A program made the translations under genes and the position numbers. A DNA stretch of 64,000 nucleotides from an uncultured Candidatus Saccharibacteria bacterium (GTDB lineage Bacteria > Patescibacteriota > Minisyncoccia > Phycocordibacterales > CALRHW01). The notes beneath the pieces were generated by a model. The model searched no databases and was not told the DNA's origin. It worked only from the letters and a program-made list of their open reading frames with translations. The first letter of the stretch is position 1; each line of letters starts with the position of its first letter. Shown here piece after piece: positions 9,311-53,423 of this stretch. Location of the stretch: the NCBI GenBank assembly GCA_964390845.1, contig CAYMIL010000001.1, forward strand, positions 11,307-75,306, read 5' to 3'.

Positions 9311-10010
9311 ATAACCCCACCCCTTTCAAAAATTCTTTGAGTTCTTCACCTCGAACCTCTCGATATCCACCTTCCGGCGCACCTGAGAGTGTAAGGTTCA
9401 TCACTCGAGTTCGTTGCAAATCGGTAACATCATTAAAAAGTGCAACAACCATGCGTCGAATCTGATGCTTCTTTCCTTCGGTGAGCGTAATACGAAATGC
9501 GTGATCGTTGAGAATCTGTACCTTGCATGGTTTGGTGATGTGGTCGCCGATGTCTACGCCACCTTCCATTTTTTGTTTAAAATTTTTCCTAATTTTTTCT
9601 CGAGTTCGCACAAGGTATTCTTTTTCGTGCGCGCTATCTGGGTTGAGGAGGCGGTCTGTTACACGGCCATCGTTGGTAAGAATAAGAAGACCGCGTGAGT
9701 TTTTGTCGAGACGACCAACAGGAAATACATCACGCAAGCCCGAGGCCGTTCGTGCATCACGCTCACCCATTTGTGGGGAATGAGTGATAACACCCTTTGG
9801 TTTGTTGTATACGTAATATCTGTACTGCACAGGACCTGTCTTTCCGAGGCGCACCTCGACGACGTCTCGTTCTTGAACCTTGTCACCAAGTTGGGCGAGC
9901 TTGCCATTGATGAACACCTTCTTACGTTCAATAAGCTCGTCTGCGCCACGGCGTGTCGAGTATTTTTTGAGAGCGAGATATTTGTTTATTCGAATCGGGT
10001 ATTCCTCCAT
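9309..10010 (-). CDS. pseudouridine synthase, RsuA/RluB family (S4 domain + catalytic domain)
   Basis: IRINKYLA (S4-like), GRLDKNSRGLLILTNDG catalytic Asp motif. Confidence 0.7.
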   Translation of the reverse strand: MEEYPIRINKYLALKKYSTRRGADELIERKKVFINGKLAQLGDKVQERDVVEVRLGKTGPVQYRYYVYNKPKGVITHSPQMGERDARTASGLRDVFPVGRLDKNSRGLLILTNDGRVTDRLLNPDSAHEKEYLVRTREKIRKNFKQKMEGGVDIGDHITKPCKVQILNDHAFRITLTEGKKHQIRRMVVALFNDVTDLQRTRVMNLTLSGAPEGGYREVRGEELKEFLKGVGL

Positions 10011-38429: not shown

Positions 38430-38996
38430 ATGAATCAGAAAAAACCAGCCGTTGTAAAGTGGGCTCTTATCATAGGTATCACTATTGTTCTTAACCTCTT
38501 TTTCAATTACGCCGCGTCGCTTGTATTTACACAGCCTGAATATAATAATTTCTGCCCTCAAGCTCAGGTGATGCAAGCATTGTCTGACGAGCGTGCGTGT
38601 GTGCAAGCTGGTGGTCAGTGGAATGGATACGCAACGCCTGTTATGGAAAAATCTGCAACGGGACAAACTGTTGCTGTGAGTGGCTATTGCGATCCGCAGT
38701 TTACATGTCGACAAAATTTTGATGCCGCACAAAAAACATATGACAGAAATGTGTTCGTGACACTTGTTGTGCTTGGGGTTCTCTGTATCGCGTACGCTCT
38801 TATTTCCAGAAAAAATGAAGTATTGGCTACAGCGCTGTCCTTTGGAGGTGTGTTGTCGTTTGTTATTGCTTCGATGAGATATTGGTCCCACGCAGACAAC
38901 ATCCTCAAGGTCGTCATTCTTGGTCTCGCGCTTGCGATACTGGTTGGTATTACACTTCGAACATTTAAAGATAGCAGTGAAACAGTACGATCATAA
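38430..38996 (+). CDS. hypothetical membrane protein with Cys-containing extracytoplasmic loop
   Basis: TM at N-terminus and 2 TM at C-terminus. Confidence 0.4.
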   Translation: MNQKKPAVVKWALIIGITIVLNLFFNYAASLVFTQPEYNNFCPQAQVMQALSDERACVQAGGQWNGYATPVMEKSATGQTVAVSGYCDPQFTCRQNFDAAQKTYDRNVFVTLVVLGVLCIAYALISRKNEVLATALSFGGVLSFVIASMRYWSHADNILKVVILGLALAILVGITLRTFKDSSETVRS

Positions 38997-40830
38997 AAAA
39001 GTAGAAAAAAAGTGGCAGGGATTGTGGGAGAAGAAGCAACTTCACGTGGTGGATGATGCTTCAGTCAAACCAAAGTTCTATGCACTCATGGAGTTTCCGT
39101 TTCCTTCTGGAGATGGTCTTCATGTTGGTCATGTACGAGGAAATGTAGCTATGGACGTTGTGGCGCGTAAGCGTCGAGCAGAGGGGTACAACGTACTCTT
39201 TCCGACAGGCTGGGATGCTTTTGGTTTGCCGACAGAAAACGCGGCAATAAAAAACAAAGTATCACCGCAGAAGATTAGTAAGCGCAACACGACAAACTTC
39301 AAAAAACAAATGAAGCGACTCGGGCTATCGTTTGATTGGACACGAGAGATCAATACAACGGACCCCGCATACTACAAGTGGACCCAGTGGTTGTTTCTTC
39401 AGTTTTACAAACACGGCCTTGCATACAAGGCAAAAATGACAATCAATTGGTGTCCGAAAGATAAGATCGGGCTCGCAAATGAAGAGGTGGTTAACGGTTT
39501 TTGTGAGCGTTGTGGCACTGCGGTAGAGAAACGCGATAAAGAACAGTGGATGCTTGCGATTACGAAGTATGCAGACCGACTTGCAAAAGACCTTGATCTT
39601 ACCGAATTTCCAGAACATATAAAAACTCAACAGAGGCACTGGATTGCTGGTCTTCGAGATTGGGTATTTTCTCGTCAGCGATATTGGGGTGAACCTATTC
39701 CAATGGTGCATTGTGAGGCGTGTGGGTGGGTTCCTGTGCCAGAGCAAGAGTTACCCGTTACTCTTCCGCGCGTCAAAAAATATGAGCCGACAGATACCGG
39801 TGAATCTCCACTGGCGGCTATTTCTTCGTGGGTGCAGACAACATGTCCGACATGTGGAGGGAAAGCACAGAGAGAAACAGACACGATGCCAAACTGGGCT
39901 GGTTCAAGCTGGTATTTCCTCCGTTTTATTGATCCTAAAAATACAAACACATTTGCTGATACGGGAAAGCTTGAGCGATGGATGCCGGTGGATTGGTACA
40001 ACGGCGGCATGGAACACACAACATTGCATCTGTTGTACTCTCGATTCTGGAATAAGTTTTTGTTTGATTGTGGTCTTGTGCCCACGACAGAGCCATACAA
40101 ACGTCGCACATCTCACGGCATGATTTTGGGTCCGGATGGAGAAAAGATGTCAAAATCTCGAGGCAACGTCATTAACCCAGATGAGGTGATTATGCATGTT
40201 GGTGCTGATACGTTGCGAGTCTATGAAATGTTTATTGGTCCTTTTGACCAGGCGGTGTCGTGGAGTACCGATTCCATCGCAGGTTCGCGACGCTTTTTGG
40301 AGCGCGTGTGGCGTTTGCAAGAACACGTTTCAAAAGACAATATTTCCGTGTCTGATGCTCTCAACGGATCTGTAGCTAAGGCAATCAAAAAAGTATCTGA
40401 CGACATTGAGCGCGCGGCCTTTAATACCGCAATCTCTGCGCTCATGATTTTGACAAATGAATTTGAAAAAGAGATAGGTGAGGGGAAGAATATTTCTCGT
40501 ATGCAGTATGAAACGCTCTTACAGCTTCTTGCTCCGTTTGCGCCACATATTACCAATGAATTATGGTCGTTGCTTGGCAACAAGACACCACTTGCTTTTG
40601 CGCCATGGCCACAGGCACAGGGAGGGGCGTTTGAATCCCAGACAAAAATGATTGCCGTACAGGTAAATGGTAAGGTGCGAGCCGAGGTAGAGGTGGCAAA
40701 AACAGAGACTGAAGAAGAAATAAGGGCTAAAACACTAGCGTTGCCCGCAGTGTCTAAGTGGCTTGAAGGTAAACAGGTGGTAAAAGTTATATATGTAAAA
40801 GACCGTTTGGTCAATATTGTGCTTCAATAA
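38977..40830 (+). CDS. leuS: leucyl-tRNA synthetase lacking the CP1 editing domain (GTG start; ORF opens at 38920)
   Basis: HVGHVRGNVAMDV, zinc knuckle CERCGT, KMSKS; HWIAG immediately followed by LRDWVFSRQRYWGEPIP. Confidence 0.75.
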   Translation: MKQYDHKKVEKKWQGLWEKKQLHVVDDASVKPKFYALMEFPFPSGDGLHVGHVRGNVAMDVVARKRRAEGYNVLFPTGWDAFGLPTENAAIKNKVSPQKISKRNTTNFKKQMKRLGLSFDWTREINTTDPAYYKWTQWLFLQFYKHGLAYKAKMTINWCPKDKIGLANEEVVNGFCERCGTAVEKRDKEQWMLAITKYADRLAKDLDLTEFPEHIKTQQRHWIAGLRDWVFSRQRYWGEPIPMVHCEACGWVPVPEQELPVTLPRVKKYEPTDTGESPLAAISSWVQTTCPTCGGKAQRETDTMPNWAGSSWYFLRFIDPKNTNTFADTGKLERWMPVDWYNGGMEHTTLHLLYSRFWNKFLFDCGLVPTTEPYKRRTSHGMILGPDGEKMSKSRGNVINPDEVIMHVGADTLRVYEMFIGPFDQAVSWSTDSIAGSRRFLERVWRLQEHVSKDNISVSDALNGSVAKAIKKVSDDIERAAFNTAISALMILTNEFEKEIGEGKNISRMQYETLLQLLAPFAPHITNELWSLLGNKTPLAFAPWPQAQGGAFESQTKMIAVQVNGKVRAEVEVAKTETEEEIRAKTLALPAVSKWLEGKQVVKVIYVKDRLVNIVLQ

Positions 40831-40870
40831 TTTGTGTGGACTTGACAAGTTTGCGCAATTAGATTAATAA

Positions 40871-41947
40871 TTGTGTTACAACGTTTACACGATGACAGCA
40901 AAACGTACAAAAGAAAAAGGTCCATCACTCTCCTTCAACCCTAAGCAGGCGACAAAACGCCTGCTTGGCGTATTAGCGGAGCGCGCACGTGATGTTGTCG
41001 TCAACCGTTACGGACTCAGTACCGACCCTCGCAAAATGACACTCGAGGCAATTGGTAAAAAATACGATATTACTCGAGAACGTGTTCGACAAATCGAAAA
41101 CTATTCCCTCGCAAATATCCGAAAATCCAAAGAATATGCTCGAGAAAAGAAAACATTTGACGAGCTTCGAGAATATATCAAACAGCTTGGAAGCGTTGTG
41201 TCTGAACACGACATCCTCGAGCACATGTCGAAAGATAAAAGCGTTCAAAATCACGCACATTTTCTTCTTGTCGTCGGTGAGGAATTTAAAAAAGAAAAAG
41301 AAGACGATGAATTTAAACATCGATGGCATATCGACTCTCGTCTTGCAGACAAAATCCACGAGTCTCTCCGCAAACTTTACTCAAGTCTTTCAGACGATGC
41401 TATTATCCCTGAAGCAGACATGGTTACCGCTTTTCTCGATCACATTAAAGATGTGAATGAGGAATACAAAAATGAAGAAGTGATCAAGCGATGGCTCGGT
41501 CTTTCAAAAAAGCTTGGTAAAAACTCTTTGGGTGAGTGGGGACGCGCACAATCATCAAATATCAATGCAAAAGGTATGCGAGATTATGCATTCTTGGTTA
41601 TTCGAAAGCACGGATCGCCGATTCATTTCCGTGAAGTTGCAAATTCAATCGAAAAAATCTTTAAAAAGAAAGCACACGTCGCAACAACTCATAACGAACT
41701 CATCAAAGACCCTCGCTTTGTGCTCGTTGGACGCGGTCTCTACGCGCTCGCGGAGTGGGGCTACATGAGCGGTGTCGTGAAAGATGTCATCCGAAAGATT
41801 CTCGAAAAGGAAGGACCGCTTACTCGGGAAGAGATTATCGATAAGGTTCTCAAAGAACGATACGTCAAAGAAAATACAATCCTCGTCAATCTTCAGAATC
41901 CAAAATTCTTTAAGAAAGACAAGCAGGGAAAATATAGTATCGCGTAA
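40871..41947 (+). CDS. sigma-70 region 4-like HTH domain protein plus winged-helix-like C-terminal domain, hypothetical
   Basis: LGVLAERARDVVVNRYGL...ERVRQIENYSLANIRK matches sigma70_r4 pattern. Confidence 0.45.
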   Translation: MCYNVYTMTAKRTKEKGPSLSFNPKQATKRLLGVLAERARDVVVNRYGLSTDPRKMTLEAIGKKYDITRERVRQIENYSLANIRKSKEYAREKKTFDELREYIKQLGSVVSEHDILEHMSKDKSVQNHAHFLLVVGEEFKKEKEDDEFKHRWHIDSRLADKIHESLRKLYSSLSDDAIIPEADMVTAFLDHIKDVNEEYKNEEVIKRWLGLSKKLGKNSLGEWGRAQSSNINAKGMRDYAFLVIRKHGSPIHFREVANSIEKIFKKKAHVATTHNELIKDPRFVLVGRGLYALAEWGYMSGVVKDVIRKILEKEGPLTREEIIDKVLKERYVKENTILVNLQNPKFFKKDKQGKYSIA

Positions 41948-41958
41948 CATCCCCTTCT

Positions 41959-43233
41959 GTGGGGATGTTTTCGTATGGTAGAATATATGGCATGGATGTA
42001 CTGATACATATTTTACGTTCAGAAATATTGTGGAGCATATTGTCGTGGATATACACGCTTACTCCGTTATGGCTCCCCATCGTTCTCCTTATTATATTTT
42101 TTAAAAAATGGATTGCTCTTATTCAGACACAGTTTATTGAAAAAGAGGGTTCTGTATTGCTTGAGATTAAGCTCCCACAAGAAATTACAAAATCTCCTGC
42201 GGCGATGGAGCTTGTATTGCTCTCAATGCACCAGCTCGCGAAAAATAACCTCATCGATGCATATATTACTGGCAAAACTCGGCCATGGTTTTCTCTTGAG
42301 CTCGTATCAATTGGCGGTTCGGTAAAGTTCTTCATCTGGGCGCGCAAACGCTTCCGCAAGATGGTTGAGACACAGATTTACGCCCAGTATCCAACAGTCG
42401 AGGTGCACGAAGCGCAAGACTACGCGATGGAAGTACATCATCCGGGAAAGCTTACGCGTAAAGACCTGATGCCGTTTTGGGCAGGGCATTTTGTACTCAC
42501 AAAAGATGATGTGTATCCGATAAAGACATATATCGACTACGGGCTCGATAAAGATCCAAAGGAAGAGTACAAGATTGATCCAATGACACCAATGCTCGAG
42601 TATCTTGGTTCACTAAAGCCGGGGGAACAGGCGTGGGTGCAAATTTTGATTCGAGCACACCGAAAAGAAGGCTTTACAGACATCCGTCTTTCTAAAAAGC
42701 CAGATTGGACTGATGCTGGCAAGAAAGAGATCAAAGAAAAGATGGAAAAGTTGAAAGAGGAAGGGGAAAATGGTTCTCGAACTCGTCAACCTACAAAAGT
42801 TGAGGCCGATGTTATTACCGCGCTTGAGCGAAGTCTCACAAAGGCACCTTTCGAGGTGGGTATTCGTGGTTTTTATATCGCGCCCCCAGATGTATTTAAC
42901 CCAGCAAATATTCCGGGTATTATTGGAAGCTTCAAACAGTACGGCTCAGAGCATCTCAACGGCTTTAAGCCATCAAAGGCGACGACATTTGATTTCCCAT
43001 GGCAAGATTTCGGACGCCGCAAACAAACTAAAAACGAAAAAAAAATGCTTGAAGCATATAAGCGCCGATCATTCTTTGAGATACCGTTTAAGTTTTACCG
43101 CGTTGACCCCTTTATCCTAAATGTTGAAGAGCTCGCGACAATTTTCCACTTCCCAGGACGTGTTGCGACAACACCTACAATTCAAAAGACAACCTCAACA
43201 AAGGGTCAGCCTCCACCAAATCTTCCTGTATAG
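41959..43233 (+). CDS. hypothetical membrane protein (N-terminal TM pair, large soluble domain)
   Basis: 12 nt after upstream gene, 4 nt before mltG. Confidence 0.4.
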   Translation: MGMFSYGRIYGMDVLIHILRSEILWSILSWIYTLTPLWLPIVLLIIFFKKWIALIQTQFIEKEGSVLLEIKLPQEITKSPAAMELVLLSMHQLAKNNLIDAYITGKTRPWFSLELVSIGGSVKFFIWARKRFRKMVETQIYAQYPTVEVHEAQDYAMEVHHPGKLTRKDLMPFWAGHFVLTKDDVYPIKTYIDYGLDKDPKEEYKIDPMTPMLEYLGSLKPGEQAWVQILIRAHRKEGFTDIRLSKKPDWTDAGKKEIKEKMEKLKEEGENGSRTRQPTKVEADVITALERSLTKAPFEVGIRGFYIAPPDVFNPANIPGIIGSFKQYGSEHLNGFKPSKATTFDFPWQDFGRRKQTKNEKKMLEAYKRRSFFEIPFKFYRVDPFILNVEELATIFHFPGRVATTPTIQKTTSTKGQPPPNLPV

Positions 43234-43236
43234 TCG

Positions 43237-44223
43237 ATGGATCCAGAACAGACACAGCAGAATACACAGTACGCTCGAGTGCGCGCCCATACTCGTTTTA
43301 TCTACGGTATCGGTGGGGCAATTATTTTTCTCACACTCGTCTACGTTGCATGTTGTCGGCCGCCAAAAGATTTTCCCGTCGGTACTACGTACACTGTCGA
43401 AGAGGGAATATCTCTCTCTCGTGTCGCGCAAGACCTTGCAAATCATCATGTCGTGTCTTCTCCGTTTATGTTTACACGTTTGGTGGTTGCGCTTGGTAAG
43501 GAAAATAATATACAGGCGGGGGACTATATGTTTGAAGAGCCTCTCACAATGTTTTCTGTTGCTCTGAGGCTCGTTACGGGCGATCACGGCATTACACCTG
43601 TGCGAATTACGATACCCGAAGGATACAATGTGTTTGAAATAGCGGATCTGGCGCGTCAGGGCCTCGATTCTTTTGACCCAAAGCGTTTTATTGAGATTGC
43701 GCAAGAAGGGTATATGTTTCCTGATACATATTTGTTTCGTCCTGATAGCACCGAAGAAGATGTCGCTGAACGTATGGAGAAAAACTTTGAAGAAAAAATT
43801 GCCACACTTTCAGATGATATTCACGCGTTCGGTAAGCCACTTAAAGACGTACTTATTATCGCGTCCATTCTTGAAGAGGAGGCGCGAACAACAGAAAGTC
43901 GGGAAATTATTTCTGGTATTTTATGGAAACGACTCGAGCTCGGTATGCCTTTGCAGGTTGATGTGACGTTTAAGTATATTAATGGGAAAAATACGTACGA
44001 ACTTTCACAGGATGATCTTGAAATTGATTCTCCATACAACACGTACAAATATGCTGGTTTACCACCAACACCTATCGCAAATCCTGGCTTAGATTCTTTG
44101 CGCGCGGCAGTACATCCACGAGAGACTCCGTATCTGTATTTCCTCTCTTCAAAAGAGGGCGCGATGTACTATGCCAAAGATTTTGAGGGGCATAAACGTA
44201 ATCGTGCGCTATACTTAGACTAA
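43237..44223 (+). CDS. mltG: endolytic murein transglycosylase MltG (YceG family)
   Basis: YceG-like blocks incl. LQVDVTFKY, DSPYNTYKYAGLPPTPIANPG. Confidence 0.75.
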   Translation: MDPEQTQQNTQYARVRAHTRFIYGIGGAIIFLTLVYVACCRPPKDFPVGTTYTVEEGISLSRVAQDLANHHVVSSPFMFTRLVVALGKENNIQAGDYMFEEPLTMFSVALRLVTGDHGITPVRITIPEGYNVFEIADLARQGLDSFDPKRFIEIAQEGYMFPDTYLFRPDSTEEDVAERMEKNFEEKIATLSDDIHAFGKPLKDVLIIASILEEEARTTESREIISGILWKRLELGMPLQVDVTFKYINGKNTYELSQDDLEIDSPYNTYKYAGLPPTPIANPGLDSLRAAVHPRETPYLYFLSSKEGAMYYAKDFEGHKRNRALYLD

Positions 44224-44224
44224 T

Positions 44225-45055
44225 ATGACCAAACAGAAATTCGTAGTAAAAGCAGATGGCACAAAGGAAGTATTTGATGGCAACAAGCTTGAGCAGTCGT
44301 TGCAACACTCAAAAGCATCTCCGCATGTTGTGAGGCTTATTGTTGAACACATTGAAAAAGAAATTGGCGAGGAAACAAAAACAGTAGACATTTTTGAACA
44401 CGCCTCAGCACTGCTTAGAAAATTTGAGCGACCTACGGCATTTCGATATTCACTGAAGCGCGCGATCATGGACCTTGGACCAACAGGTTTTCCATTTGAA
44501 GATTTTGTCGCGGAGATTTTTAAAGCGCGTGGATACACCACGCTCACAGACCAACGTGTACTTGGTAATTGCGTGGAGCATGAAGTCGACGTTGTTGCAT
44601 ACAACGACGACAAGTTGATTATGACTGAGGTTAAGTTTCATAATGAACCAGGGCTTCGCTCCGACCTTAAAGTGGCGCTCTATGTGAAAGCACGTTTTGA
44701 TGATCTCTCAGATAAAGAATTTGAAGGGTATGGGAAAAAACGCACACTCACAGAAGGATGGCTTGTTACAAACACAAAATTTACTTCAACAGCAATTCAT
44801 TATGGCCTGTGCAAAGGTATCCACATGATTGGTTGGAATTATCCCGATAAAGATAATCTACAGACACTTGTTGAGCAGTACGCACTGCATCCAATCACGT
44901 GTCTGCGCTCTCTTACACAGACACAGATGAGACAGATTGTTGCTGAAAATGTTGTGTTGTGTAAGACGCTTGCGGAACGCACCGACCTCATGAAATCTAT
45001 CGGGCTAACAGACGACGAAATACACGCTGTTGTTGAGGAAATTAATATTTTGTAA
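44225..45055 (+). CDS. ATP-cone domain fused to Mrr-like PD-(D/E)xK restriction endonuclease domain
   Basis: N-terminal VKADGTKEVFDGNKLEQSL (ATP-cone pattern); central EHEVDVVAY...EVKF PD-(D/E)xK core. Confidence 0.55.
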   Translation: MTKQKFVVKADGTKEVFDGNKLEQSLQHSKASPHVVRLIVEHIEKEIGEETKTVDIFEHASALLRKFERPTAFRYSLKRAIMDLGPTGFPFEDFVAEIFKARGYTTLTDQRVLGNCVEHEVDVVAYNDDKLIMTEVKFHNEPGLRSDLKVALYVKARFDDLSDKEFEGYGKKRTLTEGWLVTNTKFTSTAIHYGLCKGIHMIGWNYPDKDNLQTLVEQYALHPITCLRSLTQTQMRQIVAENVVLCKTLAERTDLMKSIGLTDDEIHAVVEEINIL

Positions 45056-45064
45056 TATACACAT

Positions 45065-45571
45065 ATGCACGTATTTATTTACCCTTATATTATCCCGTTT
45101 CTTCAGTTGGTGTTGGCGATGTTGCTCGGCGCGCTTTTGGGTTTTGAGCGTACATTTGCAGGAAAGACTGCAGGGGTTCGTACATACGGTCTCGTATGCA
45201 TGGGGTCATGTTTGTTTGTGGTCATCTCAACACTCGTATCGGGTATGTTTGTACACTCTATCGACTTTGACCCACTTCGCCTTGCGGCGGGAGTGGTAAC
45301 GGGTGTTGGTTTCTTGGGTGCTGGCCTTATTGTGTTTAAAGACTCAAAGCTCAATGGCCTCACTACCGCAGCTGGTTTGTGGGTATCTTGTGGTATCGGT
45401 ATGGCGGTTGGCTTTAAGCTATTCGCGGTAGCGGTTTTTGCAACGATTCTTACGTTCGCAACATTTACTGTATTGTGGTCTCTTGAAGATAAAATAAAAG
45501 ATGCGCTCAAAGATGATCTCCTTCCCAACGATTCCGACGATACAACGCGCCCTACTCATAACGTCGCATAA
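45065..45571 (+). CDS. MgtC/SapB family membrane protein
   Basis: LLGALLGFERTFAGKTAGVRTYGLVCMGSCLF. Confidence 0.7.
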   Translation: MHVFIYPYIIPFLQLVLAMLLGALLGFERTFAGKTAGVRTYGLVCMGSCLFVVISTLVSGMFVHSIDFDPLRLAAGVVTGVGFLGAGLIVFKDSKLNGLTTAAGLWVSCGIGMAVGFKLFAVAVFATILTFATFTVLWSLEDKIKDALKDDLLPNDSDDTTRPTHNVA

Positions 45572-45576
45572 GATTA

Positions 45577-46326
45577 GTGGCTGAATACGGATACAAAAAA
45601 AGAAGTGCGTCATGGAATTATGGTGGACCACAGTGGAAATTGAGTCGATCAAAAATCGACCTGTTCCTCAACTGTCCTCGTTGTTTTTATCTAGATAATA
45701 AACTTGGTATAAAACGTCCAGACACCCCACCGTTTACACTCAATGTTGCTGTCGATGCATTGCTCAAAAAAGAATTTGATATACACCGCGCCCACAAGCG
45801 ACCTCATCCGCTTATGGATACCTACGGAATAGATGCGGTGCCTTTTTCACACAAAGATCTTGAAGCGTGGAGGCACAACTTTACAGGAATCCAGCATATA
45901 CATAAGCCAACAGGACTTCTTGTGTCGGGTGCTGTTGATGATATTTGGGTCAACCCAGCAGGAGAGCTGATTGTTGTTGATTATAAAGCAACAGCAAAAG
46001 ATGGCTCCATCGACAAGCTCGAAGATACAAAATGGCACAACCAGTATCGTCGCCAGATGGAGGTGTATCAATGGCTACTTAGGGGAAAGAAGTTTTCTGT
46101 GTCGGATACTGGATATTTTGTGTATGTAAATGGAAAAACAGATAAAGAGTCGTTTGATGGAAAGCTTGAGTTTGATGTGACTATTATTCCGTACACTGGC
46201 TCTGATGCCTGGATTGAGGATGTGTTGTACGATATTCACACGTGTCTGGAAAGCGACACCCCTCCGGTACCCACAAAAACCTGTGATTATTGCTCGTATA
46301 TTGAAGCGATGTCCGACGTGGTATGA
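45577..46326 (+). CDS. Cas4-like/RecB-like PD-(D/E)xK nuclease with 4-Cys cluster; no CRISPR nearby
   Basis: N-terminal CPRCFYL, core ELIVVDYKA...Y.QMEVYQWLL, C-terminal C-x2-C. Confidence 0.5.
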   Translation: MAEYGYKKRSASWNYGGPQWKLSRSKIDLFLNCPRCFYLDNKLGIKRPDTPPFTLNVAVDALLKKEFDIHRAHKRPHPLMDTYGIDAVPFSHKDLEAWRHNFTGIQHIHKPTGLLVSGAVDDIWVNPAGELIVVDYKATAKDGSIDKLEDTKWHNQYRRQMEVYQWLLRGKKFSVSDTGYFVYVNGKTDKESFDGKLEFDVTIIPYTGSDAWIEDVLYDIHTCLESDTPPVPTKTCDYCSYIEAMSDVV

Positions 46327-46333
46327 TGTCCGC

Positions 46334-46603
46334 ATGTCAGAGGACACATTTACTCGTAGGGTATTGTCGATTGTGCGCGATATTCCTCGTGGTTCTGTGA
46401 TGACCTACGGTCACGTTGCGAGCCTCGCCGGTAGCCCTGGCGCTAGTCGTGCGGTGGGCAGTATTCTTAAAAAAAATTATAATCCCGATATCCCGTGCCA
46501 CAGAGTCATCCGTTCAAATGGTACACTTGGTCGTTACAATCGCGGTGATGCAAAAAAAGCTCAACTACTTGCCTCGGAGGGTTATTGCAACTACACACCA
46601 TGA
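46334..46603 (+). CDS. MGMT-family methylated-DNA-protein-cysteine methyltransferase DNA-binding domain protein
   Basis: PCHRVI active-site motif. Confidence 0.6.
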   Translation: MSEDTFTRRVLSIVRDIPRGSVMTYGHVASLAGSPGASRAVGSILKKNYNPDIPCHRVIRSNGTLGRYNRGDAKKAQLLASEGYCNYTP

Positions 46604-47196
46604 ACGACAAGAGAGAAAAAATGAAACAGGTCCGAGACGATGTCTTTGCACTCGAAGCCTCTCCACTCTATGCGGTTCGTGTTGCGCATAAGACATTTCC
46701 CGTAATTGGTGAAGGAGACCACGACGCGCGGATTATGTTTATCGGCGAGGCGCCAGGAAAAAATGAGGCAGCAACAGGACGTCCGTTTGTTGGCGCGTCG
46801 GGTAAAATTTTAAACGAGTTGCTTGAGTCAGTTTCTATTGCCCGCGAAAAAGTGTACATCACAAACATTGTAAAAGATCGTCCTCCACAAAACCGCGATC
46901 CATTGCCAGAAGAGATAGACATATACGCACCCTTTCTTGATCGACAAATAGATATTATTCAGCCGGCTGTAATAGCAACACTCGGCCGCTTTGCGATGAT
47001 ATATAGTATGAAAAAATTTGGTCTTGAGGCACAACTGGAGCCAATTTCCAAACTGCACGGCAGGGAATTTACCGTGCAAGCATCCTATGGTCCTATCACA
47101 CTACTTCCTCTGTACCACCCAGCGGTTGCCGTGTATAATTCGACCACAAAAGACATGCTCAAAGAGGATTTTAAGATACTCAAAAAATATTTATGA
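46600..47196 (+). CDS. uracil-DNA glycosylase, family 4
   Basis: GEAPG motif; ATGA start/stop overlap with upstream gene. Confidence 0.7.
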   Translation: MNDKREKMKQVRDDVFALEASPLYAVRVAHKTFPVIGEGDHDARIMFIGEAPGKNEAATGRPFVGASGKILNELLESVSIAREKVYITNIVKDRPPQNRDPLPEEIDIYAPFLDRQIDIIQPAVIATLGRFAMIYSMKKFGLEAQLEPISKLHGREFTVQASYGPITLLPLYHPAVAVYNSTTKDMLKEDFKILKKYL

Positions 47197-48995: not shown

Positions 48996-50798
48996 ATGAA
49001 TTCACAGCAGATTCGAAGCGCATTTTTGGCCTTTTTTAAAGAACGCGGACACGCCGTGTTGCCCTCAGCATCTCTGGTTACGACTGATGAAAAGGGTGTA
49101 ACAGACAATACACTTTTTAATACGGCGGGTATGCAGCCGCTTATTCCGTACTTGCTTGGCGCACAACACAAAGAGGGTACGCGTCTCGCAAGCTCACAAA
49201 AGTGTTTGCGCACAACTGACATCGACAGTGTTGGAGATAATACGCACGCAACCTTTTTTGAAATGCTCGGCAACTGGTCGCTTGGGGATTATTTTAAAAA
49301 AGAGGCAATAGAGTGGAGTTTTGAATTTCTGACATCAAAAGAAAAAGGTCTTGGCTTGGATCCGCGCCGTTTGTATGTGACGGTGTTTGAAGGAGATGAG
49401 AATGCACCAAAAGACGAAGAGTCGTATGTGCTATGGAAAGATATATTTGCTCGGCACAATATTTCTGGTGAGCGAATCTATTACATGGGCGCAAAAAGTA
49501 ATTGGTGGAGTGCTGGAGACAACGGTCCATGTGGTCCCGACACTGAGATGTTTTATGATCTTACAGGTACGCTTCTTGATGGTATGACGCGGGAGGAGTA
49601 TATGCGTGCTGACGATGAGCAGAAGGTTGTCGAAGTTTGGAATGACGTCTTTATGGAGTATGAAAAGAAAGATGGTCGGGTTGTGGGTAAGCTTCCGCGA
49701 CACAACGTCGACACAGGTGCTGGCCTCGAGCGCTTACTTGCTGTGCTGTCTGGTGCGCGGTCTATTTTTGACACAGACGTGCTTGCTCCGCTTGTGCGTG
49801 TGGCCGAAAAAATAGCGGACACAACTCGAGCACAACGTATCATTGCTGACCATATTCGCACCTCAGTATTTCTTATCGCCGACGGCGTTACGCCCTCAAA
49901 CACAGATAGAGGCTATATTCTTCGCCGACTTCTTCGTCGTGCAGTGCTCAATACACGCACACACAACATAGATGCAGGTACATTGAGTGAATTTCTCGGG
50001 CATGTTTCCACGGTATATGGCACAGAATATCCAGAAATAACAGCACAGCGTGCATCGATTGAAAGTGTTATACATCAGGAGGTGGAAAAATTTAGAAAAA
50101 CGTTGTCTGACGGTATAAAGCAGTTTGAGAAAATAATATCGCAATCACAAGGCACCATTTCTGGCACCGATGCATTTGTGCTTTTTTCTACGTATGGTTT
50201 CCCAATAGAAATGACACAGGAACTTGCTCAAGAACGAGGGGTGAAAGTCGACATGGAGAGTTTTAAAACTGAGTTTTCACAACACCAAGAACGCTCTCGC
50301 GCGGGTGCTGAGCAAAAATTCAAGGGAGGTCTTGCGGGGACAGACGACATGTCTGTGCGGTACCACACTGCTACACATTTGTTGCATCAAGCGCTTCGGG
50401 ATGTTCTTGGCGAGCATGTAGAACAGCGTGGTTCAAATATTACTCCTGAGCGATTACGATTTGATTTTACGCATCCTCAAAAAATGACAGACGAAGAGAA
50501 GCGTCGAGTTGAAGAAATTGTAAATCAAAAAATTACAGCATCTCTCCCAGTACACTGTGTTGTGTTGCCAAAAGACGAAGCACTACGCACAGGTGCACGA
50601 CACCTTTTTAATGAAAAATATGGAGATGAAGTGAGTGTGTATATTATTGGCGACACACTCGACACGGCATATTCAAAAGAATTTTGTGGTGGACCACATG
50701 TAAACAATACACGTGAGCTTGGCGTCTTCTCAATCGTGAAAGAAGAAGCAGTTTCTTCAGGCGTTCGACGCATCAAGGCAATTCTTTCTGTGGTATAA
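48996..50798 (+). CDS. alaS: alanyl-tRNA synthetase, short form (catalytic + editing, no C-Ala domain)
   Basis: class II motifs, editing HxxxH (HTATHLLH) and CGGPHV. Confidence 0.85.
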   Translation: MNSQQIRSAFLAFFKERGHAVLPSASLVTTDEKGVTDNTLFNTAGMQPLIPYLLGAQHKEGTRLASSQKCLRTTDIDSVGDNTHATFFEMLGNWSLGDYFKKEAIEWSFEFLTSKEKGLGLDPRRLYVTVFEGDENAPKDEESYVLWKDIFARHNISGERIYYMGAKSNWWSAGDNGPCGPDTEMFYDLTGTLLDGMTREEYMRADDEQKVVEVWNDVFMEYEKKDGRVVGKLPRHNVDTGAGLERLLAVLSGARSIFDTDVLAPLVRVAEKIADTTRAQRIIADHIRTSVFLIADGVTPSNTDRGYILRRLLRRAVLNTRTHNIDAGTLSEFLGHVSTVYGTEYPEITAQRASIESVIHQEVEKFRKTLSDGIKQFEKIISQSQGTISGTDAFVLFSTYGFPIEMTQELAQERGVKVDMESFKTEFSQHQERSRAGAEQKFKGGLAGTDDMSVRYHTATHLLHQALRDVLGEHVEQRGSNITPERLRFDFTHPQKMTDEEKRRVEEIVNQKITASLPVHCVVLPKDEALRTGARHLFNEKYGDEVSVYIIGDTLDTAYSKEFCGGPHVNNTRELGVFSIVKEEAVSSGVRRIKAILSVV

Positions 50799-52000
50799 TG
50801 TACGGCATGTCAGAGGTAAATCTCGTACTCGACATCGGAAACGGTAGTGTCGGCGCGGCACTTGTCGTCTTTGCGCGCGGCGCGAAACCCCGTATGGTGT
50901 TTACTCACCGAGCACCTCTCTCTATTCCTATACAACCAGACTCAAAACATCTCTCTGCGGTGATGCTCTCTGCGCTTGAGTCGGCGGTTTCGCATGTGGC
51001 AGAGCAGGGCCCACACGTTCTCCACTCGCTTGGCATAAAAAACGAAAAAGTTCGTCACACATTTTGTATCTTGGCATCACCATGGTATGCCTCAAAAACA
51101 AAAATTGTTCACATCGAAAATAAAGATCCTATTTTTATTACAAAAGGTTTTGTACGCGAGTTGCTCGACAAAGAAGAAGGGTTGTTTGAAGAAAATCTAC
51201 TCGTACACAGCGAAGGTGTTTTTTCCAAGGGCGACTTTAAGGTAATTGAGAAAAAAGTAATTCATACAACACTCAATGGTTATAGCACATCGAGTCCGTA
51301 TGAAAAACGAGCTGAGCATATTGAGCTTGCTATCCACCTAAGTGTCGCTCCTACGAGCGTTGTCGATGCGATCGAGCGCATTGTGGGCAAGTTTTTCTAT
51401 GCAAAACACATGCTTATTCACTCGTTTCCTCTAGTGGGGCAAAGCGTAGTGAGCGACCTAGCGCCATCAGAAACAAATTTCCTCTTTGTTGATGTGTCTG
51501 CTGAAGTGACAGACGTTTCTTTTGTTGAAAACCATGTTCTTATGGAAACTGCGTCATTTCCTATGGGTAGAAATCATTTGGTGCGGGAGATAGCAAAGGC
51601 ATTTGATGTAACAACAGACATCGCGATGTCATTTGCGAGTTTGCACGCACACGACAACGCCGAGCGTGCTGTTGCGCAAAAAATTGATGCAACATACGCA
51701 GAGGCACACACTGTGTGGGGAAATTATTTTTCGGGAGTAGTGAGCGACATGATACGGGAGCGCGTACCCGCAAAAATATTTGTGACAGCAGATGAAGAGC
51801 TCGCTCCTGTGTTTGTATCATGTATCAAAAAAAATCTCGCCCCCATGGCGCAAGGCACGATCAATTTGCAGGGAACACCTGTGGTACTTCTCGACACACA
51901 AGCGCTCTGTGCACTTGTCGACACTGATGCGCATACAGCGCACGACCCATTTTTGGCAATCGAAAGCATTTTCTTTTCAAAGTTGTTCAATGAGCAATAA
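50798..52000 (+). CDS. FtsA/PilM-like actin-fold protein with degenerate phosphate-binding motifs
   Basis: LVLDIGNGSVGAALV (phosphate 1-like), FVDVSAEVTDVS in place of DxGGGTxD, adenosine-like MGRNHLVREIAKAF. Confidence 0.4.
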   Translation: MYGMSEVNLVLDIGNGSVGAALVVFARGAKPRMVFTHRAPLSIPIQPDSKHLSAVMLSALESAVSHVAEQGPHVLHSLGIKNEKVRHTFCILASPWYASKTKIVHIENKDPIFITKGFVRELLDKEEGLFEENLLVHSEGVFSKGDFKVIEKKVIHTTLNGYSTSSPYEKRAEHIELAIHLSVAPTSVVDAIERIVGKFFYAKHMLIHSFPLVGQSVVSDLAPSETNFLFVDVSAEVTDVSFVENHVLMETASFPMGRNHLVREIAKAFDVTTDIAMSFASLHAHDNAERAVAQKIDATYAEAHTVWGNYFSGVVSDMIRERVPAKIFVTADEELAPVFVSCIKKNLAPMAQGTINLQGTPVVLLDTQALCALVDTDAHTAHDPFLAIESIFFSKLFNEQ

Positions 52001-52076: not shown

Positions 52077-53423
52077 ATGATCAAAAAAATTGTGCAGGAT
52101 GTAGTTCCTCCCGAACAAAAAACGATCAGAAACATTCCGATTCCAAGTCGGAGAACACGAGCTCGTGCAAGTGTTTCTTCTACAGCCACACCGACACCAC
52201 CCTCATCTTTTGAAACACCTCGAGTTGAAAGCTTGAGTCGGCGGTATGACACATCTTCTTTGGTTACACCACCACGCCGACATGGTCCTTCAAAAAAAGG
52301 TTTTTGGAGTATCGTCGTTGCGTGCGTCCTTCTTCTTGTGTACGGGATTTCCTTTTTGTTTGTCAGCGCTGAGGTAACCATCACTCCAAAGACAGAAACA
52401 GCAAATATTAACGCCGCACTTGTTGCGAAGAAAAGTGCCGATGAGGGTGTGCTCGGATACGATCTCGTAACTGTTTCAAAAGAGCTCGGAAAAACAGTTC
52501 CGGCACAAGGCGAGGAGTCTGTTGAGAAAAAGGCGTCTGGAAAAATTGTTATTTACAATAAAAACAGCGCTACAAGTCAGCGACTTATTGCAAACACACG
52601 ATTTCAGACTCCCGGCGGCCTTATTTATCGCATTACCGATGCTGTTGTTGTGCCTGGATACACCAAAAAGGGTAGTGATATTACCCCAGGTAGCATATCT
52701 GTAACGGTATATGCGGATAAGCCAGGCGAGACATACAATATCGGCTTCTCAGACTTCACTATCCCAGGCTTTAAGGGTGACCCTCGCTACACAACAGTCT
52801 ACGCTCGTTCTGAAACACCAATGCAGGGTGGCTTTGTCGGAAAAGCAAAAAAAGTAACCGATAGCACTCTTGAGGCTACCGAAGATGAGCTCGAAGCACA
52901 GCTAAAAGAACAGCTTATGATAGAGGCAACATCTCAAATCCCTGATTCATACATTTTGTACCCAGGAGCTGTATCTTATGTTTTTGAAACTATGCCCCAA
53001 ACAGAGACCACAGACACTACCGTTAAGATCAACAAAAAAGGCACCCTCACTGGTATGATAATCGACAAAAAGTCACTCTACGCGGCACTTTCAGAGGAAA
53101 GACCGATCAAAACCCATGATGGGGAAGTATACGTAGCACACCCTGAAAACCTAGAGTTTTCCCTTGGTGCGAGCGAAACCCTTACCCCTGCCACGGTAAA
53201 AGATGTCTCGTTTACCCTCCGCGGACCAGCAAAGTTTGTATGGGTTTTTGATGAGCAGAAGGTCAAAAAAGACCTTGCGGGTAAGCCAAAAAGTAGCCTA
53301 AGTTCGATTCTTTCCTCGTATTCTTCACTGGAGAAAGCAAGGGCGGTGGTAAGCCCAATCTGGAAGAGGTCGTTCCCTAAAGATACTGATAAAATCACTA
53401 TCCGGACAATAGGTGTTGACTAA
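52077..53423 (+). CDS. hypothetical bitopic membrane protein (disordered basic N-terminus, 1 TM, about 350-aa beta-rich ectodomain)
   Basis: follows actin-fold gene; no known domain recognised. Confidence 0.4.
   Translation: MIKKIVQDVVPPEQKTIRNIPIPSRRTRARASVSSTATPTPPSSFETPRVESLSRRYDTSSLVTPPRRHGPSKKGFWSIVVACVLLLVYGISFLFVSAEVTITPKTETANINAALVAKKSADEGVLGYDLVTVSKELGKTVPAQGEESVEKKASGKIVIYNKNSATSQRLIANTRFQTPGGLIYRITDAVVVPGYTKKGSDITPGSISVTVYADKPGETYNIGFSDFTIPGFKGDPRYTTVYARSETPMQGGFVGKAKKVTDSTLEATEDELEAQLKEQLMIEATSQIPDSYILYPGAVSYVFETMPQTETTDTTVKINKKGTLTGMIIDKKSLYAALSEERPIKTHDGEVYVAHPENLEFSLGASETLTPATVKDVSFTLRGPAKFVWVFDEQKVKKDLAGKPKSSLSSILSSYSSLEKARAVVSPIWKRSFPKDTDKITIRTIGVD

Follow-up and report, generated by a model that had tools for sequence, protein, structure and literature searches.

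An AF1548-like putative nuclease with an N-terminal ATP-cone, encoded in a conserved LeuRS-to-AlaRS gene block of Paceibacteria

The last of four forward-strand ORFs located at 40871-45055 of the window (that is, the whole 64,000-nt stretch of contig CAYMIL010000001.1 that was analysed) encodes a protein of 276 aa, here termed g4, in which an ATP-cone is joined to a PD-(D/E)xK (Mrr_cat) nuclease core and an AF1548-like helix-hairpin-helix tail. It is a member of a large, conserved and uncharacterised family, namely the AF1548 family with an N-terminal ATP-cone, and its gene is a syntenic, vertically inherited core gene of a housekeeping block reaching from LeuRS to AlaRS. That it lies so close to the three genes upstream (g1 to g3) stems from local chance in a genome that is very compact throughout, and not from a dedicated operon. 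Confidence in this architecture and in the rejection of the four-gene operon, taken together, is high. The functional and mechanistic reading, and this part alone, is put forward tentatively: g4 may well be an adenylate-gated, non-specific nuclease employed in nucleic-acid turnover or nucleotide salvage.

Domain architecture and conserved residues of g4

The g4 gene (44225..45055, forward strand) consists of three parts. Residues 1-85 (44225..44479) form the ATP-cone, as identified by Pfam, alignments and fold comparison; residues 86-205 (44480..44839) form the nuclease core, identified by Pfam, alignments and a PDB match; and residues 206-276 with the stop codon (44840..45055) form the AF1548-like C-terminal domain, a helical domain of the helix-hairpin-helix type that is a probable non-specific nucleic-acid binder. 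The fusion of an ATP-cone to a Mrr-type core had been put forward in the original prediction, and it is upheld by family-wide Pfam matches, the fold of the cone and the invariant catalytic residues. When searched singly, g4 is confirmed by HMM for Mrr_cat (PF04471; residues 88-194, 27.7 bits against a gathering cutoff of 21) but not for the ATP-cone (PF03477; 23.4 bits, just below the cutoff of 25.8, and covering only model positions 2-55 of 88), which is instead confirmed across the family: all 69 of 69 members match PF03477 at E <= 1e-3 (best 3e-9), and 66 of the 69 match Mrr_cat at the same threshold. AF1548-like_C scores 21.7 bits in g4 (cutoff 23.9), and the g4 sequence matches AF1548 itself (PDB 1Y88) with an E value of 2.6e-30. 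The AlphaFold model of g4 has a pLDDT of 92.4, and the N-terminus of the protein is a four-helix bundle with a beta-hairpin cap that superposes on solved ATP-cones.

The catalytic residues of g4 (E92, D122 and E135-A-K137) are invariant across 69 Paceibacteria sequences, as are C116, H119 and H139 of the core, with C196 nearly so. In 16 homologues from outside the CPR, the corresponding E88, D118 and E131-C-K133 likewise do not vary, and the D and ExK of the motif are present in AF1548. In the cone, K9, G12, K21 and Y75 are invariant; for K9, K21 and Y75 this holds across the 69 Paceibacteria members and, at the equivalent positions, in the 16 non-CPR members. T53 is strictly or almost strictly conserved, according to the alignment used, and H59 is almost invariant only within the CPR branch (the Paceibacteria members). 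We take the nucleotide-contacting residues of ATP-cones to be a Lys-Arg after the first strand, a second Lys and Thr/His in the helices. In the cones of ribonucleotide reductases (RNR) and NrdR, an Arg follows the conserved Lys (KR), judging from RNR structures, whereas g4 has an Ala at this position (KA, within K-A-x-G). The nucleotide preference of g4, whose nucleotide binding is putative, could therefore differ.

The family comprises 1057 clusters at 50% identity, and among the best 150 of these nearly all have a length of about 280 aa. Literature searches found no functional study of an architecture combining an ATP-cone with a Mrr-type nuclease, in agreement with the earlier statement that it has no established function.

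Conserved gene order in Paceibacteria

The comparison set was formed by 80 retrieved genome loci, all of them from Patescibacteria/Parcubacteria-type MAGs; these may be phylogenetically clustered, in which case the counts given do not represent independent events. Where the flanks suffice, the gene order is LeuRS-g1-g2-MltG-(MnmA)-g4-(MgtC/Cas4-like/MGMT/UDG)-AlaRS. With 44-57% identity to its orthologues, compared with 42-63% for LeuRS, g4 comes close to the neighbouring aminoacyl-tRNA synthetases in its degree of conservation. In the window, the tight run of forward-strand genes goes on past g4 with MgtC (45065-45571), a Cas4-like PD-(D/E)XK nuclease (45577-46326), a minimal MGMT (46334-46603) and a family-4 UDG (46585-47196), followed by an M3 peptidase and AlaRS. 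The genes from MgtC to UDG (45065..47196) are variable yet recurrent 3' neighbours of g4 in related loci. The shared gene order among Paceibacteria loci may reflect common ancestry, without any necessary functional linkage.

Homologues outside the CPR

Full-length homologues of g4 with about 40% identity were identified in Bacteroidota and Chlamydiota, where they lie in a different recurring cassette. Two are borne on plasmids, one of Pontibacter and one of Criblamydia, and the cassette there begins with the ATP-cone nuclease, followed by a beta-CASP MBL protein, a member of the thymidine/AMP-phosphorylase family and a PRPP-synthase-like protein. In metagenome loci whose downstream flank measures 1.5 kb or more, the beta-CASP gene directly follows the nuclease in 26 of 62 and lies within two genes in 34 of 62, the gaps between the two being -34 to 18 nt. 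A phosphorylase is located no more than five genes away in 10/42 metagenome loci, and Usp genes no more than three genes upstream in 25/59. The cassette phosphorylase is of the archaeal type (TIGR02645, 601 bits; AMP_phos, 506 bits with a cutoff of 535), and the beta-CASP protein resembles the ribonucleases aCPSF1 and Cas14. These non-CPR islands are rich in Usp and Hsp20 stress genes, with response-regulator/cNMP/Crp-type regulators also present, a composition that recalls the Burkholderia lxa locus (PMC3721108). An MBL/PRS/TP trio of Bradyrhizobium is induced by microoxia (PMC6515984), and an AMP-phosphorylase/RuBisCO nucleoside pathway is already known from CPR bacteria (PMC5113843, PMC6389311). 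In the 80 Paceibacteria loci, g4 nowhere adjoins the beta-CASP and phosphorylase partners, and the window lacks them altogether; a function carried over from the non-CPR cassettes would be extrapolated at an identity of about 40%.

Predicted function of g4

With the domain architecture, the intact catalytic motif, the synteny and the genomic context as observed starting points, we infer a ligand, a substrate, a regulation and a physiological role for g4 as follows. The cone would bind an adenine nucleotide (ATP/dATP), and binding would alter the oligomeric state or domain packing of the protein, as in ribonucleotide reductases and NrdR. In its altered state, the non-sequence-specific endonuclease would be switched either on or off, while the helix-hairpin-helix tail would grip the nucleic-acid backbone. 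In this organism, such an enzyme may well act in nucleic-acid turnover that supplies nucleotide salvage, or in processing linked to repair, in either case adjusted to the adenylate/deoxyadenylate pool.

A second reading, unlikely on balance but of some weight, is that g4 is a structure-specific nuclease of repair or recombination, comparable to Hjc, NucS or RecU and acting on branched or damaged DNA, with the cone coupling it to the availability of dNTPs for repair synthesis. Some sources name homologues of g4 'Holliday junction resolvase-like predicted endonuclease', a helix-hairpin-helix tail is typical of repair proteins, and the genes that recur downstream of g4 in Paceibacteria loci code for a Cas4/RecB-like nuclease, MGMT and family-4 UDG; these CPR neighbours point to DNA repair as much as to salvage. 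The adjacency of the repair genes is nevertheless weak evidence, as they differ between loci and lie within a long syntenic housekeeping block, and similarity at the level of the PD-(D/E)xK fold does not discriminate between substrates. The genes that recur beside the homologues outside the CPR encode a beta-CASP ribonuclease, enzymes of nucleotide catabolism and stress proteins, and they include no repair genes. An adenylate-gated nuclease of turnover or salvage remains the preferred reading.

Organization of the upstream genes

All four forward-strand ORFs are present as originally described. The first, g1 (40871..41947; 358 aa as the listed ORF), possesses a Sigma70 region 4 domain (Sigma70_r4, aa 31-85, E 9e-13; Pfam), as expected of the sigma70-region-4-like HTH protein that had been proposed, and additionally a HARE-HTH domain (aa 236-296, E 1e-9) that had gone unmentioned. 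With 58-83% identity to its orthologues, g1 exceeds all other genes of the block in conservation. No match to g2 (41959..43233; 424 aa as the listed ORF, 413 aa in the public gene call) was found in the local copy of Pfam; precomputed annotation assigns it to DUF8128 (PF26449), a membrane protein with N-terminal transmembrane helices and a soluble domain like the N-terminal domain of VirB4/TrwK and EccE. The product of g3 (43237..44223; 328 aa) is an endolytic transglycosylase of the MltG/YceG type (E 3e-73), in line with its earlier naming as mltG, with both PF02618 (247 bits, cutoff 32.4) and TIGR00247 (200.3 bits, cutoff 103.4) above their cutoffs.

The start of g1 is probably ATG 40892; the TTG with which the listed ORF begins (40871) overlaps the -10 element of the sigma-70-like promoter match that is best within 36.5-54 kb. 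This site, located on the forward strand in the LeuRS-g1 spacer (40842..40871; TTGACA, 18-nt spacer, AATAAT; 11/12 positions), is a consensus match only, in a region where the total of promoter-like sites equals the shuffled expectation. For g2, the start is probably ATG 41992, so that the real g1-g2 spacer would be 44 nt and would contain a GC-rich terminator-like hairpin that lies between the g1 stop and the g2 start (41947..41972, forward strand; (A)CATCCCC-TTCTGT-GGGGATG(T) followed by a T-run; dG -14.2 kcal/mol). Equivalent hairpins, unrelated in sequence, occur at this position in 30 of 52 related loci, compared with 2/45 loci for the LeuRS-g1 spacer and 0/54 for that of g2-mltG. The hairpin and T-run after g1, here and in these loci, indicate that g1 is probably a monocistronic transcription unit of its own.

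Gaps of 12, 4 and 2 nt had been taken to imply co-transcription of the four genes. The tight spacing stands; the figures are differences between coordinates, the untranslated spacers of the listed ORFs being 11, 3 and 1 nt. Co-transcription itself is not borne out. The genes are co-directional with short spacers, but such gaps are usual in the window (for its 51 same-strand neighbour pairs the median is 11 nt, and 26 of them are separated by 12 nt or less), a terminator-like hairpin intervenes, and adjacency of the four genes is not conserved: the gene immediately 5' of g4 in 70 of the 80 related loci from Paceibacteria is mnmA (Pfam E about 1e-72 to 1e-78), which stands between mltG and g4 and is often joined there by other genes. 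A dedicated g1-g2-mltG-g4 operon is rejected in view of the ordinary spacing, the g1-g2 hairpin and the mnmA gene found before g4 in relatives. Only in the window and in locus L036 does mltG adjoin g4; its adjacency in the window is due to mnmA missing from that position, and the unexplained coupling of nuclease to cell-wall transglycosylase that had been remarked upon is a local result of this absence. The only conserved tight pair is g2-mltG, whose spacer has a median of 3 nt across 54 related loci.

It is very improbable that the four genes form one module in which g1 is the regulator, g2 and MltG are an envelope machine, possibly for DNA uptake, and g4 processes the incoming DNA. Besides their common direction and minimal spacers, the order g1-g2-mltG...g4 is conserved across Paceibacteria; however, the conserved order takes in LeuRS and AlaRS as well, two genes whose functions plainly lie elsewhere, g2 possesses no ATPase domain, and the hairpin 3' of g1, the interposed mnmA and spacing that is ordinary for this genome all count against such a module.

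Comparison with known systems

The original prediction had also suggested an abortive-infection/defence or DNA-uptake role for g4. As an anti-phage effector, its cone would sense a nucleotide pool disturbed by infection and free an indiscriminate nuclease; the layout of a sensor with a PD-(D/E)xK nuclease parallels that of Can2, Card1, Cdn1 and NucC, all of which are among the fold matches, and two homologues are on plasmids. This role is nonetheless very improbable. The gene occupies a syntenic, conserved position in 80/80 Paceibacteria loci with conservation like that of an aminoacyl-tRNA synthetase, and the plasmid copies lie in metabolic cassettes. No restriction-modification, toxin or other defence genes were found among the annotated neighbours, whose roles are in housekeeping, repair or metabolism, no relative of g4 was matched in 50,697 phage records and none was confirmed in IMG/VR viral contigs, while the only PADLOC match is weak and partial (candidate PDC-S02, E 5.8e-5). 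A possible tie to DNA uptake or to the nucleotide pool, the other option raised originally, would fit this context better.

Nuclease folds are sometimes reused as DNA-binding modules, and the cone of g4 superposes best on those of NrdR, the repressor that represents the characterised role of ATP-cones outside ribonucleotide reductases, but a nucleotide-responsive regulator of this kind, whose nuclease fold and tail merely bind DNA, is hardly credible given that E92, D122, E135 and K137 are invariant in the CPR and non-CPR branches and in AF1548, which argues for retained catalysis, that g4 has no NrdR-type zinc ribbon, and that no RNR genes lie near g4 or its homologues in any locus examined. 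In NrdR and in RNR (NrdA, NrdD, NrdB) the cone is carried on a zinc-ribbon repressor or an RNR subunit, whereas that of g4 is N-terminal with a nuclease core behind it.

AF1548 of Archaeoglobus fulgidus, with the Pfam pair Mrr_cat and AF1548-like_C, is among the nearest known counterparts of g4. AF1548 has no ATP-cone, only about 22 residues preceding its nuclease core, and is a structural-genomics entry with no assigned function. The catalytic family Mrr_cat, for which g4 scores above the gathering cutoff, is shared with E. coli Mrr and other Type IV restriction endonucleases. These read modified DNA with an N-terminal winged-helix that g4 does not possess, nor does g4 have a restriction-modification or mobile-element context; its assignment as a Type IV (Mrr-like) restriction enzyme was rejected on the basis of the ATP-cone at its N-terminus and the syntenic housekeeping block in 80 loci. 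The ligand-gated PD-(D/E)xK nucleases of CRISPR and CBASS (Can2, Card1, Cdn1 and NucC) employ CARF or SAVED as sensor, where g4 has an ATP-cone, and g4 behaves as a core gene with no cyclase or CRISPR context. Its likeness to these nucleases is one of possible working mode and not of group membership.

Gene content and order around g4

The gene of main interest, g4 (44225-45055), encodes a predicted nuclease and follows three other genes on the + strand, g1 (40871-41947), g2 (41959-43233) and mltG (g3; 43237-44223), with untranslated spacers of 11, 3 and 1 nt at g1-g2, g2-mltG and mltG-g4, respectively. All four ORFs lie where the original prediction placed them. The genome sampled by the window is compact and of Patescibacteria (Paceibacteria/Parcubacteria) type. 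Its proteins are listed under such names in public databases, and the 80 related genome loci all come from MAGs of this type. Annotation (Pfam, NCBIfam and precomputed) identified Sigma70 region 4 and HARE-HTH domains in g1, DUF8128 (PF26449) with transmembrane helices at the N-terminus in g2, an MltG/YceG domain in g3, and ATP-cone, Mrr_cat and AF1548-like_C domains in g4. Among the mechanically called ORFs between window positions 10000 and 64000, 56 of 68 are carried by the + strand, an extreme strand bias, and cumulative GC skew rises monotonically along the window. UvrB, UvrA and UvrC are also encoded there; between UvrB and UvrA lie a histidine kinase gene and an ORF of 259 aa.

The four genes had been read as a single operon linking the cell wall, a regulator and a nuclease. 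Synteny in 80 genome loci, intergenic statistics and hairpin scans led to the rejection of this operon, because the spacing is ordinary, a terminator-like hairpin follows g1 and mnmA normally lies between mltG and g4; the arrangement is ordinary genome compaction. The median gap of same-strand neighbour pairs in the window (n=51) is 11 nt, with 26 of the 51 at 12 nt or less, and the tight run goes on past g4 through MgtC, a Cas4-like nuclease, MGMT, UDG, an M3 peptidase, AlaRS and beyond. The hairpin (CATCCCC-TTCTGT-GGGGATG, dG -14.2) is followed by a T-run and is located between the g1 stop codon and the g2 ATG; it was spotted by reading the sequence and confirmed with RNAfold, the automated terminator scan not having listed it. 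A GC-rich hairpin with a T-run, of unrelated sequence, occurs in the g1-g2 spacer of 30 of 52 related loci, and equivalent hairpins were found in the LeuRS-g1 spacer of 2 of 45 loci and in the g2-mltG spacer of none of 54.

Gene order in the 80 loci is LeuRS, g1, g2, MltG, a gap, g4, a variable set of MgtC, Cas4-like, MGMT and UDG genes, and AlaRS. The gap holds mnmA (tRNA 2-thiouridylase; Pfam tRNA_Me_trans, E 1e-72 to 1e-78), which directly precedes g4 in 70 of the 80 loci (median spacer 44 nt). This gene was found neither at the 44223/44225 junction nor anywhere in the 64-kb window, and mltG adjoins g4 only in the window and in one related locus (L036). Tight pairing is conserved for g2-mltG alone (median spacer 3 nt; 20 nt or less in 42 of 54 loci). 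That the products of g1 to g4, neighbours in the window, form a functional module is one of the less likely readings.

With a promoter-like site upstream (40842-40871; 11 of 12 positions match) and the terminator-like hairpin after it, g1 looks monocistronic. Because the mechanical ORF start, TTG 40871, overlaps the -10 hexamer of this promoter-like match, the start of g1 is probably ATG 40892. No other gene of the block is as well conserved (58-83% identity for g1, above LeuRS). The HARE-HTH part scores below cutoff against TIGR04567, the model for RNA polymerase delta, and g1 could be an RNA-polymerase-associated factor; a complete sigma factor was ruled out because region 2 is absent. The start of g2 is probably ATG 41992 (public calls are 413 aa, homologues 405-415 aa), and, when its sequence was searched against the PDB, only matches at chance level were returned. 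Open-access literature yielded nothing relevant on DUF8128 or on the combination of HARE-HTH and sigma domains.

LeuRS (38920-40830) is only 636 aa long and matches TIGR00396 (747 bits) in two stretches, appearing to skip roughly profile positions 225-410. No match to the LeuRS editing-domain model was found for it, and it appears to be devoid of the CP1 editing domain; in related loci the orthologous LeuRS ORFs vary in length between about 600 and about 1000 aa. Directly 3' of g4 (45065-47196) are encoded MgtC, a Cas4/RecB-like PD-(D/E)XK nuclease, MGMT and a family-4 uracil-DNA glycosylase. MGMT, whose start is likely 46334 and not 46205, is an 89-aa protein comprising the C-terminal domain only, with the active-site PCHR motif present. 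Just past AlaRS are two + strand ORFs, 50798-52000 (400 aa) and 52077-53423 (448 aa), for which no Pfam or NCBIfam match was obtained at E <= 1e-5.

Domains and conserved residues of g4

The proposal that g4 fuses an ATP-cone to an Mrr-type nuclease was borne out by Pfam matches, a structural match and invariant catalytic residues. The protein combines a sensor domain of the ATP-cone class with an intact PD-(D/E)xK core and a helix-hairpin-helix tail. Its Mrr_cat match passes the Pfam cutoff and its ATP-cone match is just under it (23.4 vs 25.8 bits); among relatives, the ATP-cone was matched in 69 of 69 and Mrr_cat in 66 of 69. Over residues 94-272 the sequence matches AF1548, whose structure is solved (1Y88; E 2.6e-30), and an AlphaFold model built from 69 sequences is confident (pLDDT 92.4, pTM 0.85).

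In ribonucleotide reductases and NrdR the ATP-cone acts as an allosteric switch, and a profile of the N-terminal domain of g4 retrieves the cones of NrdD and NrdR (E about 0.01). In the cone, no variation was seen at K9, G12, K21 and Y75 and none or almost none at T53; H59 is nearly invariant within the CPR (Candidate Phyla Radiation) branch. After the first strand g4 has K-A, where the cones of ribonucleotide reductases and NrdR have K-R. The nuclease is probably active, since its catalytic residues E92, D122, E135 and K137 do not vary. A structural metal site may be formed by C116, H119, H139 and C246, all invariant, and the nearly invariant C196.

Conservation and distribution of the g4 family

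Among Paceibacteria, g4 has the character of a core gene: it occupies a fixed position, and its identity to orthologues (44-57%) is comparable to that of LeuRS (42-63%) and AlaRS. The family is conserved across phyla, ranging over CPR, Bacteroidota, Chlamydiota and archaea, with 6214 matches in a 90%-clustered database and 1057 clusters at 50% identity, 424 of them at E <= 1e-30. Almost all of the best 150 of the 1057 clusters have a length of about 280 aa and contain all three domains; there are also a few forms of about 210 aa that lack the cone and resemble AF1548. Database names are 'ATP cone domain-containing protein' or 'restriction endonuclease', and nothing relevant on the ATP-cone and Mrr/AF1548 fusion was found in the open-access literature.

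Genomic context outside CPR

A tblastn search of plasmids returned two full-length homologues of g4 at 40% identity, one from Pontibacter (Bacteroidota) and one from Criblamydia (Chlamydiota). Each stands first in a cassette of the same composition, in the order ATP-cone protein, MBL-fold hydrolase, thymidine-phosphorylase-family protein and ribose-phosphate pyrophosphokinase. With the Criblamydia protein as query and a subsequent metagenome scan, 80 further loci were obtained. A beta-CASP MBL gene is the next gene in 26 of the 62 loci with at least 1.5 kb downstream, and lies within two genes in 34 of these (gaps -34 to 18 nt). A phosphorylase occurs within five genes in 10 of 42 loci with at least 4.5 kb downstream, and Usp genes, often four to five in tandem, within three genes upstream in 25 of 59 loci with at least 1.5 kb upstream. 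Cassette loci include L081, L082, L084, L088, L096, L098, L105, L115, L129, L132, L137, L139, L141 and L167, among others. PFK, 2-hydroxyacid dehydrogenase, GAPDH-like, AAA_28, CstA, Hsp20 and response-regulator/cNMP/Crp regulator genes are also recurrent, as is MgtC, here as MgtC-DUF4010. The cassette phosphorylase is of archaeal type (TIGR02645, 601 bits; AMP phosphorylase model, 506 bits vs a cutoff of 535) and the beta-CASP protein is similar to the ribonucleases aCPSF1 and Cas14. Outside CPR the family is genomically coupled to an RNA-degrading beta-CASP enzyme, nucleotide-catabolic enzymes and energy-stress genes, a context that is newly noted here. None of the beta-CASP, phosphorylase or PRPP-synthase partners was found in the window or the 80 CPR loci.

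In Bradyrhizobium, an MBL/PRS/TP trio is induced by microoxia (PMC6515984). The low-oxygen lxa locus of Burkholderia comprises six Usp genes, alpha-crystallin, a sugar kinase and acetate kinase (PMC3721108), and the non-CPR islands resemble such hypoxia/dormancy islands in composition; the paper on the locus makes no mention of an ATP-cone nuclease, MBL or thymidine phosphorylase, and the analogy applies to the island type only.

Possible role of g4

CPR bacteria are believed to rely on scavenged nucleic acids as their source of nucleotides, and we know of no described control over the breakdown of this material. As a widely conserved nuclease bearing the switch that controls dNTP synthesis elsewhere, g4 is a concrete, testable candidate for that control point. 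In the reading judged most likely, the cone would read ATP/dATP and gate a non-specific endonuclease, whose products would pass through exonucleolytic breakdown to NMPs and then to salvage of ribose-phosphate and base. In bacteria lacking de novo nucleotide synthesis, imported or own nucleic acid would then be degraded only when the adenylate/deoxyadenylate pool demands it. An AMP-phosphorylase/RuBisCO nucleoside pathway is documented for CPR (PMC5113843, PMC6389311), and the breakdown of nucleic acid there could be provided or controlled by g4. Elsewhere, in other phyla, this switch might head a stress-induced cassette converting RNA to NMP to ribose-bisphosphate by means of the beta-CASP RNase and the AMP-phosphorylase-like and PRPP-synthase-like enzymes. 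Taken jointly, a cone-gated housekeeping nuclease answering adenylate/deoxyadenylate demand in CPR and heading this cassette elsewhere is a tentative reading, possible and on balance doubtful. If true, this would add a new regulatory role for the cone and supply a missing upstream step of CPR nucleoside salvage. The interest of the locus rests on the function of this predicted cone-gated nuclease and on its non-CPR cassette, not on an operon.

The chief alternative, a nuclease acting in repair or recombination, is supported by the fold similarity of g4 to NucS and Hjc and by the Cas4-like, MGMT and UDG genes 3' of it in CPR. A role in defence or abortive infection, as originally suggested, is less likely and was set aside as leading explanation: PADLOC gave a partial PDC-S02 match only, tblastn against 50,697 phage records returned no homologue, and a pattern scan of IMG/VR gave no confirmed relative.

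Comparison with known systems

By sequence, g4 is a member of the already known, uncharacterised AF1548/Mrr_cat family with a genuine ATP-cone. AF1548 itself has a solved structure and no assigned function; with more than 1000 clusters at 50% identity, one biochemical study would annotate thousands of genes. Mrr-type restriction enzymes differ in that g4 has neither a modified-DNA reader nor a mobile context, and for this reason it is not considered one of them. Nor is it an NrdR, because it lacks the zinc ribbon, and NrdR-like regulation, which the shared cone might suggest, is likewise less likely. The CARF/SAVED nucleases form a further group to which g4 does not belong, although it may work alike.
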